A stretch of 25,161 bases of DNA. It comes from a virus. The notes under the pieces are model-generated. The model saw only the letters and a program-made list of their open reading frames with translations, was not told where the DNA came from and searched no databases. A program made the translations under genes and the position numbers. The stretch is from the UHGV virus genome UHGV-1407879; one strand, written 5' to 3'. Positions 1,996-3,832 of this stretch are shown piece by piece. The first letter of the stretch is position 1, and every line of letters begins with the position of its first letter.

Positions 1996-2615
1996 GACTC
2001 GAAAGCGTAGCTAAATTTCATTCGCCAAAAAGCCCGATGATGAGCGACTCACCACGGGCTACGGCTTCTGACTCTCTTTCCGGTACTGATGTGATGGCTG
2101 CTATGGGGATGGCGCAATCACAAGCCGGATTCGGAATGGCTGCATTCTGCGGTAAGCATGAACTCAGCCAGAACGACAAACAAAAGGCTATCAACTATCT
2201 GATGCAATTTGCACACAAGGTATCGGGGAAATACCGTGGCGTTGCAAAGCTTGAAGGAAATACTAAGGCAAAGGTACTGCAAGTGCTCGCAACATTCGCT
2301 TATGCGGATTATTGCCGTAGTGCCGCGACGCCGGGCGCAAGATGCAGAGATTGCCACGGTACAGGCCGTGCGGTTGATATAGCCAAAACAGAGCAGTGGG
2401 GGAGAGTTGTTGAGAAAGAGTGCGGAAGATGCAAAGGTGTCGGCTATTCAAGAATGCCAGCAAGCGCCGCATATCGCGCTGTAACGATGCTAATCCCAAA
2501 CCTCACCCAACCCACCTGGTCACGCACTGTTAAGCCGCTGTATGACGCTCTGGTGGTGCAATGCCACAAAGAAGAGTCAATCGCAGACAACATTTTGAAC
2601 GCGGTCACACGTTAG
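1992..2615 (+). CDS. Q: Late-gene antiterminator Q (lambda type)
   Basis: 207 aa, essentially identical from memory to lambda Q ([27 protein letters not shown]...; zinc-binding CRDCHGTG...CGRCKG). Confidence 0.95.
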
Positions 2616-2657
2616 CAGCATGATTGCCACGGATGGCAACATATTAACGGCATGATA

Positions 2658-2700
2658 TTGACTTATTGAATAAAATTGGGTAAATTTGACTCAACGATGG
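2658..2700 (+). promoter_or_regulatory. Late promoter PR' with overlapping qut site
   Basis: -35 TTGACT (2658-2663), 17-bp spacer, -10 TAAATT (2681-2686); sequence TTGACTTATTGAATAAAATTGGGTAAATTTGACTCAACGATGG matches lambda PR'/qut from memory, immediately downstream of Q. Confidence 0.8.
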
Positions 2701-2721
2701 ATAAATGCACTCGTTAAATAA

Positions 2722-2757
2722 AGCCCTGAGTTAATAGCTCGGGGCTTTTTGCGTTTT
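2722..2757 (+). terminator. Rho-independent terminator shortly downstream of PR' (tR'-like)
   Basis: Stem AGCCCTGAG (2722-2730) / CTCGGGGCT (2738-2746) with one G-U wobble, 7-nt loop, followed by TTTTTGCGTTTT. Confidence 0.6.
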
Positions 2758-3028
2758 AAGCACGGCCTTTCTGAAAGCACATCAAACCAAATACCAGACA
2801 GACAAAAATAATCACCTTATCCGCTGTGGCTACGGTGCGGTGTGCTTTGCATAAAAGAAAACCAGCTCAATGGCTGGCTTCGTGAAAGCGGGTGGCAAGA
2901 GGTTGCGCTAACAACCTCCTGCCGTTTTGCCCGTGCATATCGGTCACGAACAAATCTGATTACTAAACACAGTAGCCTGGATTTGTTCTATCAGTAATCG
3001 ACCTTATTCCTAATTAAATAGAGCAAAT

Positions 3029-3042
3029 CCCCTTATTGGGGG
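3029..3042 (+). promoter_or_regulatory. sdi stem-loop controlling the S dual translational start
   Basis: CCCC-TTATT-GGGGG hairpin a few nt upstream of the Met1-Lys2-Met3 start of S, as in lambda. Confidence 0.6.
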
Positions 3043-3048
3043 TAAGAC

Positions 3049-3372
3049 ATGAAGATGCCAGAAAAACATGACCTGTTAGCCGCCATTCTCGCGGCAAAGG
3101 AACAAGGCATCGGGGCAATCCTTGCGTTTGCAATGGCGTACCTTCGCGGCAGATATAATGGCGGTGCGTTTACAAAAACAGTAATCGACGCAACGATGTG
3201 CGCCATTATCGCCTGGTTCATTCGTGACCTTCTCGACTTCGCAGGACTAAGTAGCAATCTCGCTTATATAACGAGCGTGTTCATCGGCTACATCGGTACT
3301 GACTCGATTGGTTCGCTTATCAAACGCTTCGCTGCTAAAAAAGCCGGAGTAGAAGATGGTGGAAATCAATAA
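3049..3372 (+). CDS. S: Holin/antiholin S (S107/S105 dual start)
   Basis: 107 aa, near-identical to lambda S from memory ([39 protein letters not shown]...); three hydrophobic segments; MKM dual-start motif. Confidence 0.95.
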
Positions 3373-3832
3373 TCAACGTAAGGCGTTCCTCGATATGCTG
3401 GCGTGGTCAGAGGGAACTGATAACGGACGACAGAAAACCAGAAATCATGGTTATGACGTCATTGTTGGCGGAGAGCTATTCACTGATTACTCCGATCACC
3501 CTCGCAAACTTGTCACGCTTAACCCCAAACTCAAATCAACAGCAGCCGGACGTTACCAGCTTCTTTCCCGTTGGTGGGATGCCTATCGTAAGCAGCTTGG
3601 CCTGAAAGACTTCTCTCCGAAAAGCCAGGACGCTGTGGCATTGCAACAGATTAAAGAGCGTGGCGCTTTGCCGATGATTGATCGCGGTGATATCCGTCAG
3701 GCTATCGACCGTTGTAGCAATATCTGGGCTTCTCTTCCGGGCGCTGGTTATGGTCAGTTCGAGCATAAGGCTGACAGCCTGATTGCAAAATTCAAAGAAG
3801 CTGGCGGAACGGTCAGAGAGATTGAGGTATGA
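3356..3832 (+). CDS. R: Endolysin R (lytic transglycosylase)
   Basis: 158 aa, near-identical to lambda R from memory ([24 protein letters not shown]...); overlaps the S stop. Confidence 0.95.

Follow-up and report, generated by a model that had tools for sequence, protein, structure and literature searches.

A probable late-gene switch of the P22/HK97/HK022 form, with a predicted short terminated leader RNA, in the virus genome UHGV-1407879

The non-coding region 2616-3048 of the virus genome UHGV-1407879, which separates the Q and S genes, is very probably a standard late-gene switch working with a λ/P22-type Q protein, in the allelic form carried by P22, HK97 and HK022. The arrangement is already known, since it is annotated in P22, for which the literature also records a short late RNA, and the sequence of 2616-3048 contains no feature that contradicts the late-switch explanation. 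All positions refer to the window, i.e. the whole stretch of 25,161 nucleotides that was analysed, and the features lie on the + strand unless stated otherwise.

Results

The source phage and the genes flanking the leader

The best matches of the whole 25-kb window are the P22-like podoviruses CUS-3, phiv205-1, E212 and HK620, and the CUS-3/HK620-like matches cover the portal, coat, DNA-transfer and injection proteins. On the left of the leader, the Q antiterminator gene of the λ/P22 'type 1' (1992-2615) encodes a protein which shares 206 of its 207 residues with λ Q (99%) and 202 of 207 with P22 gp23 (98%), and which matches the Pfam family Antiterm (PF03589, E = 1.3e-57). The λ Q and P22 gp23 proteins are reported to be interchangeable (PMC8022706). 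On the right, the first late gene is the holin gene S (3049-3372; Pfam PF05106, E = 2.4e-30), which is of the λ type (320/324 nucleotides identical to λ S) and is followed by open reading frames where λ has R and Rz. The distal leader, S, R and Rz of the window are the λ alleles and not the counterparts of P22 genes 13, 19 and 15. The element is therefore a P22-like phage or prophage with λ alleles of Q and S and λ-like lysis genes. Since it belongs to the P22-like (CUS-3/HK620-like) phages, λ is the wrong reference for it, and P22/HK97 is the right one for its late switch.

Late promoter, qut and pause element

The late promoter PR' (P late, 2658-2686) is located by a promoter scan, by identity with λ and by the P22 annotation. 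It consists of a -35 hexamer TTGACT (2658-2663) and a -10 hexamer TAAATT (2681-2686), separated by a 17-bp spacer which contains the Q-binding element. From the Q stop codon to position -1 (2616-2692), the sequence is identical to λ NC_001416 at all 77 positions (-77 to -1), both hexamers and the spacer included, and by homology the transcript would start at A2693 (+1), which corresponds to λ 44587. In the P22 record BK000583, these hexamers bear the label 'P late or P R'' (37852-37880); the record also annotates 'qut' at 37871-37900 and the 'P late RNA 5' nt' at 37887. Positional homology to the λ +1 and to these P22 features places qut, as delimited in the P22 record (-16 to +14), at 2677-2706. 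It comprises a -35-like TTGACT (2686-2691) and the -10-like AACGAT (2693-2698, +1 to +6), the σ70 pause-inducing element, both identical in λ and P22; the roles of these elements would be those established in the literature on λ Q. In P22, the +1 is also that of the window. Furthermore, the phage Emek record annotates the same promoter and qut together with a rho-independent terminator, and the records of the HK phages mark PR' and qut at the homologous sites.

The window therefore contains the Q gene, the promoter with its Q-binding element, the pause element and the terminator that characterize λ/P22-type (type 1) Q antitermination. By analogy with λ and P22, a σ-dependent pause is expected near +16/+17, after which Q would allow the polymerase to read through the terminator. 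The precise site of the pause may not be the +16/+17 of λ, since the base following the λ pause site, +17, is a G in λ and an A in the window and in P22.

The pentamer TCGTT at +19 to +23 is common to the λ leader, to the short leader of the window and to a third variant found in one IMG/VR locus (L114), whereas +9 to +17 differ among the three. TCGTT can pair with AACGA (+1 to +5) to form a 5' stem. Its conservation may have its origin in an RNA structure, in the downstream limit of qut or in the mere position of the joint.

Mosaic joints relative to λ

An earlier reading of the sequence alone had proposed that the promoter and qut match λ through about +16, that the 6S RNA region beyond is replaced, and that λ-like sequence returns 150-200 bp before S, which would create a recombination joint inside a non-coding regulatory region. 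Pairwise alignment to λ shows that the region is indeed not colinear throughout, the divergent part being 2716-2877. The promoter and qut are roughly conserved as proposed, but the limit at +16 has to be redrawn: identity extends to +8 (2700), the first mismatch is already at +9, and substitutions at +9, +11, +15 and +17 (2701, 2703, 2707 and 2709) precede a CTCGTT (+18 to +23) that again matches λ, whose homology ends after 2715. The left boundary is therefore a zone (2701-2715) rather than a point, delimited by the alignment to λ (19/23 identical from +1 to +23) and by the complete identity of P22 over the same interval (23/23).

Beyond this zone, the 162 bp of 2716-2877 occupy the place of 405 bp in λ (44610-45014), which hold the rest of the 6S RNA, tR', a spacer and the annotated orf-64, all without counterpart in the window. 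In three Smith-Waterman comparisons (the substituted segments, the two terminator regions and the post-terminator spacers), the observed score was reached by 392, 140 and 258 of 500 shuffles. A homology between the window terminator and tR', suggested by a MAFFT alignment, was discarded since the local scores are no better than those of shuffles. With respect to λ, the segment is a true non-homologous substitution. Identity with λ resumes at 2878 (λ 45015), 171 bp before the S initiation codon (ATG, 3049) in both genomes, and 169 of these 171 positions are identical, a return that falls within the interval anticipated. Relative to λ, the non-coding late leader accordingly has two mosaic joints, the first at about +9 to +24 and the second at 2877/2878. 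The segment is replaced in the sense that an unrelated 162 bp stands in the place of the λ sequence; the implication that λ represents the ancestral state is without support, the allele being that of P22.

Relationship to P22 and to the HK phages

From +1 to +72 the window is identical to P22 at 70 of 72 positions (P22 37887-37959). In this interval P22 carries 't late or t R'; antiterminated by gene 23 protein action' (37917-37945), at +31 to +59, the same distance as in the window, the loops being TTTAACCG in P22 and TTAATAG in the window. This homology, together with the annotated t late at the same offset, places the leader among the P22/HK97-type short late leaders. Further downstream the likeness declines: the post-terminator spacer is only 62% identical to that of P22, and the distal leader 72%.

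HK544, HK140, HK97, HK022, mEp213/mEp043 and Sf101 are colinear with the window from Q to R (2400-3400) and 97.3-98.6% identical. The phages of the HK544/HK140/HK97/HK022 group are mostly siphoviruses (Hendrixvirinae), whereas the structural genes of the window are P22-like, and their records leave the terminator without annotation. The transcriptome of phage BTP1 was set aside as a comparison, because tRNA genes follow Q in that phage and its late region is different. A search for tRNA genes in the Q-S region of the window found none; tRNA genes are frequent at the post-Q position in Stx phages, L and Sf6.

The terminator and the short leader RNA

The intrinsic terminator tR' (t late, 2720-2757) is identified by a terminator scan, by folding, by homology to P22 and by the Emek annotation. 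Its stem (2720-2748) comprises 13 pairs, six of them G-C, with a G+C core formed by 2723-2730 and 2738-2745 and a loop at 2731-2737. A T-run, TTTTTGCGTTTT (2746-2757), follows, with a run of five T directly after the stem. Relative to +1, the hairpin extends from +28 to +56 and the T-run ends at +65, in agreement with the prediction by the sequence-only reading of a hairpin some 30-60 nt downstream. The 64-nt leader folds with -23.3 kcal/mol (z = -4.3), and none of 200 shuffles is as stable.

Taken with the position of +1, this terminator predicts a constitutive short leader RNA of about 58-65 nt (2693-2753), laid out as a 5' stem (AACGAUG/CA-UCGUU), an A/U-rich linker UUAAAUAAA, the terminator hairpin and a U tail. 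At about 60 nt, the released RNA would be roughly one third of λ 6S RNA (about 194 nt; the T-run of λ tR' ends at +193), so that the much shorter leader foreseen from the sequence alone is borne out by the terminator position. The existence of this RNA, its exact 3' end and the efficiency of termination are deduced from the λ and P22 literature. In this respect, short terminated late RNAs derived from PR' are described for P22, 21, 82 and φ80 in the passage of PMC7547250 which cites Roberts et al. (1976).

Among the matches listed, the terminator is nearly invariant in 64 IMG/VR loci, and the variation falls mostly in the loop. Comparison of 23 distinct leader sequences reveals no compensatory change in the hairpin. 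The few differences seen alter one side of a pair or disrupt it, and a covariation signal is absent because the hairpin hardly varies. The structure of the hairpin is thus founded on thermodynamics and homology and not on covariation.

Could the hairpin at 2720-2748 be something other than an operative terminator, for instance one that serves RNA stability or processing? In that case, transcripts made independently of Q would end further on, e.g. at the hairpin 2894-2923, and the leader would not be short. The leader does contain further strong hairpins, and terminator scans are imperfect both ways: the simple scan misses λ's own tR' (L001, 1000-1700), so that absent scan matches in these leaders are weak evidence. 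Nevertheless, 2720-2757 has all the canonical features of a terminator (a G+C-rich stem of 8-13 bp, a short loop and five T), whereas the hairpin 2894-2923 is followed by only four T and then GCCC. Moreover, the P22 record labels its homologous site t late/tR', and the short P22 late RNA is among those mentioned in the cited passage of PMC7547250. We consider this alternative very improbable and retain 2720-2757 as the terminator of the leader.

Membership of the 6S RNA family, defined by homology to the 194-nt PR' transcript of λ (44587-44780), is not found, since only +1 to +23 aligns and the rest scores as shuffles do. The short leader RNA is therefore best described as a positional analogue of λ 6S RNA and not as a member of its family. 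A permissive Rfam scan of 2000-3600 gave no match to the leader at E ≤ 1, only a chance snoU85 at E = 0.18, and a full-text literature search with the leader and terminator sequences returned no match.

Distal leader and right joint

The spacer following the terminator (2758-2877, module B) is of the P22/HK97 type and unrelated to λ. It is followed by the λ-like distal leader (2878-3048, module C; λ 45015-45185), which holds the hairpin 2894-2923 followed by GTTTTG (to 2929) and a stem-loop that lies directly before the start of S. Folded as a whole, the 368-nt leader gives z = -4.3. The hairpin 2894-2923 has 12 bp and is shared with λ; it may act in secondary termination or in processing. Its fifth pair is hypervariable from locus to locus (A, G or T opposite C or A, often mismatched), and pair 10 shows a compensatory change from T-A to C-G in P22. 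In one locus (L098) the loop and inner stem are inverted, GTTAGCGC being found instead of GCGCTAAC.

The terminator scan also detects, on the - strand and exactly at the right mosaic joint, a terminator-like hairpin with a T-run (2881-2848). P22 has a minus-strand terminator-like site at the same place (L122, 38078-38043) with another stem (CCCAG/CTGGG against CCAGC/GCTGG), whereas λ has nothing comparable. No convincing leftward promoter which could serve this hairpin is found downstream, in a search extended to 5400.

The records of HK140, ECP1, mEp234 and Sf101 list as a hypothetical protein a 51-aa open reading frame with a GTG start (2842-2997, + strand). As a gene it is probably spurious, since it lacks any Pfam match, lies across the mosaic joint and is cut short in divergent loci.

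Distribution and module combinations

A 201-bp query across the substitution recovers 88 phage records, including HK140, HK544, mEp235, HK97, HK022, Sf101 and many Salmonella P22-like phages, and the 1-kb Q-to-R interval is covered to at least 80% by 105 phage records. In IMG/VR, an exact-pattern scan for the pause region found at least 119 stretches, 83 of those listed having a PR' context. Among these 83 loci of the matches listed, 64 carry the short leader, 17 the λ 6S leader, one a truncated form and one the third variant (L114). The commonest combination among the matches listed is that of the window (33 loci), i.e. the short leader, the P22/HK97-type spacer, the λ-like distal leader and the λ S gene; the spacer itself is present in 43 of about 80 classifiable loci among the matches listed.

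The short-leader segment is found in 334 of 5,426 complete E. coli genomes (about 6%), 262 of them at a coverage of at least 80% and many at 100% identity. The 404-bp λ counterpart is covered to at least 80% in 217 complete E. coli genomes, several of which are laboratory lysogens. The short leader is thus at least as frequent as the 6S arrangement of λ. A scan of GTDB species representatives, which rarely carry this prophage, gave two matches for the leader. One of the two, an exact copy of the enterobacterial short leader, lies in a contig labelled 'MAG: Bacillota bacterium' (L125, JAEZIN010000021.1), most likely a mis-binned enterobacterial prophage contig.

These counts bear on the idea that a λ-type late region was altered recently, and in this prophage alone, by recombination or deletion. 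The near identity of the flanks with λ, 77/77 upstream and 169/171 downstream, would suit such an event. However, at least 88 phage records, at least 64 IMG/VR loci and 334 E. coli genomes contain the same joints and insert, with identities that reach 100%, and the records span several virus genera and hosts and not one clonal prophage. Furthermore, the window is a P22-like phage and not a λ derivative, and P22, obtained from Salmonella decades ago, has the same leader. We give this idea almost no credence: the joints are old, family-wide mosaic boundaries, common to dozens of phages and hundreds of prophages.

In two loci (L065 and L074) the T-run of the short leader is joined directly to λ post-tR' sequence (GCACAACAGGTAAGAGCATT...), and their spacer contains a tRNA-like fragment (GGTTCGATTCCGGC); in two others (L045 and L060) the short leader is followed by other sequences. 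The post-terminator site thus accommodates further module combinations, possibly including tRNA insertions.

A trans-acting role for the leader RNA?

Besides being a by-product of antitermination, the predicted leader RNA of about 60 nt could be a trans-acting regulatory sRNA in lysogens. The precedent is the Stx-phage RNA StxS (Sy et al. 2020), which is made constitutively from PR' in lysogens, ends at tR', is processed from a longer form, binds Hfq, activates rpoS and has rpoS and stx1 as its regulatory targets. The authors of that study suggest that sRNAs may arise from PR' leaders in general and that such leaders may often gain functions (PMC7547250). StxS has the same positional origin as the predicted leader RNA, but Stx phages have another Q/qut type and another sequence. 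The layout of the leader, with a 5' stem-loop, the linker UUAAAUAAA, the terminator hairpin and a U tail, is of the Hfq type, and the leader hardly varies among phages of E. coli and Salmonella. Yet this conservation does not exceed that of the adjoining gene, the leader being 97% and Q 95% identical in nucleotides between the window and P22, and the functions of qut and of the terminator also account for it.

Neither do pairing predictions favour such a role. The pairing of the leader with the E. coli rpoS 5' UTR is equalled by 108 of 300 and 143 of 300 shuffles, against 1 of 300 for the DsrA control, so that the above-chance pairing expected of an StxS-like RNA is not found. For the phage's own late and early-right transcripts, 13 of 40 and 2 of 40 shuffles do as well, which is not clearly above chance. 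The Rfam result at E ≤ 1 also speaks against this reading. An StxS-like function therefore seems unlikely to us, and we regard the RNA as a product of the late-gene switch.

A broader form of the proposal is that the RNA would be made in every lysogen of P22/HK97/HK022-type prophages as a functional sRNA, and that the leader-plus-terminator unit (+9 to +66) would be exchanged as a discrete module, because three or more different sequences are found to follow it. We hold this proposal, too, to be unlikely.

Discussion

The model we favour for the region 2616-3048 follows the scheme of λ and P22. By analogy with these phages, PR' (2658-2686) would fire constitutively from A2693, and the -10-like AACGAT at +1 to +6, with TTGACT just upstream, would hold the σ70-RNA polymerase in a promoter-proximal pause. 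Without Q, the polymerase would resume elongation, stop at the terminator 2720-2757 and free an RNA of about 60 nt. Once accumulated, the Q protein would bind between the -35 and the -10 and load onto the paused polymerase. The Q-loaded polymerase would become terminator-resistant and would read past this terminator and any that follow it, and so transcribe S, R, Rz and the P22-like genes for morphogenesis. The pausing, the loading of Q and the extent of termination in this scheme are transposed from the λ and P22 literature, while the sequence identities, the module boundaries, the terminator structure, the prevalence of the leader and the P22 annotation are direct observations.

The logic is the same in λ: a constitutive promoter, an early terminator and a Q-dependent read-through, with the same promoter, Q-binding and pause elements. 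λ differs by the four substitutions between +9 and +17, by its 405 bp in place of the unrelated 162 bp, and by a longer terminated RNA.

In conclusion, the late leader of this P22-like phage is an ordinary feature, and its recognition matters little beyond a correct annotation. The one point of wider interest is the regulatory role that an abundant, constitutive prophage RNA of about 60 nt might have, a question that has already been posed for PR' leaders generally.
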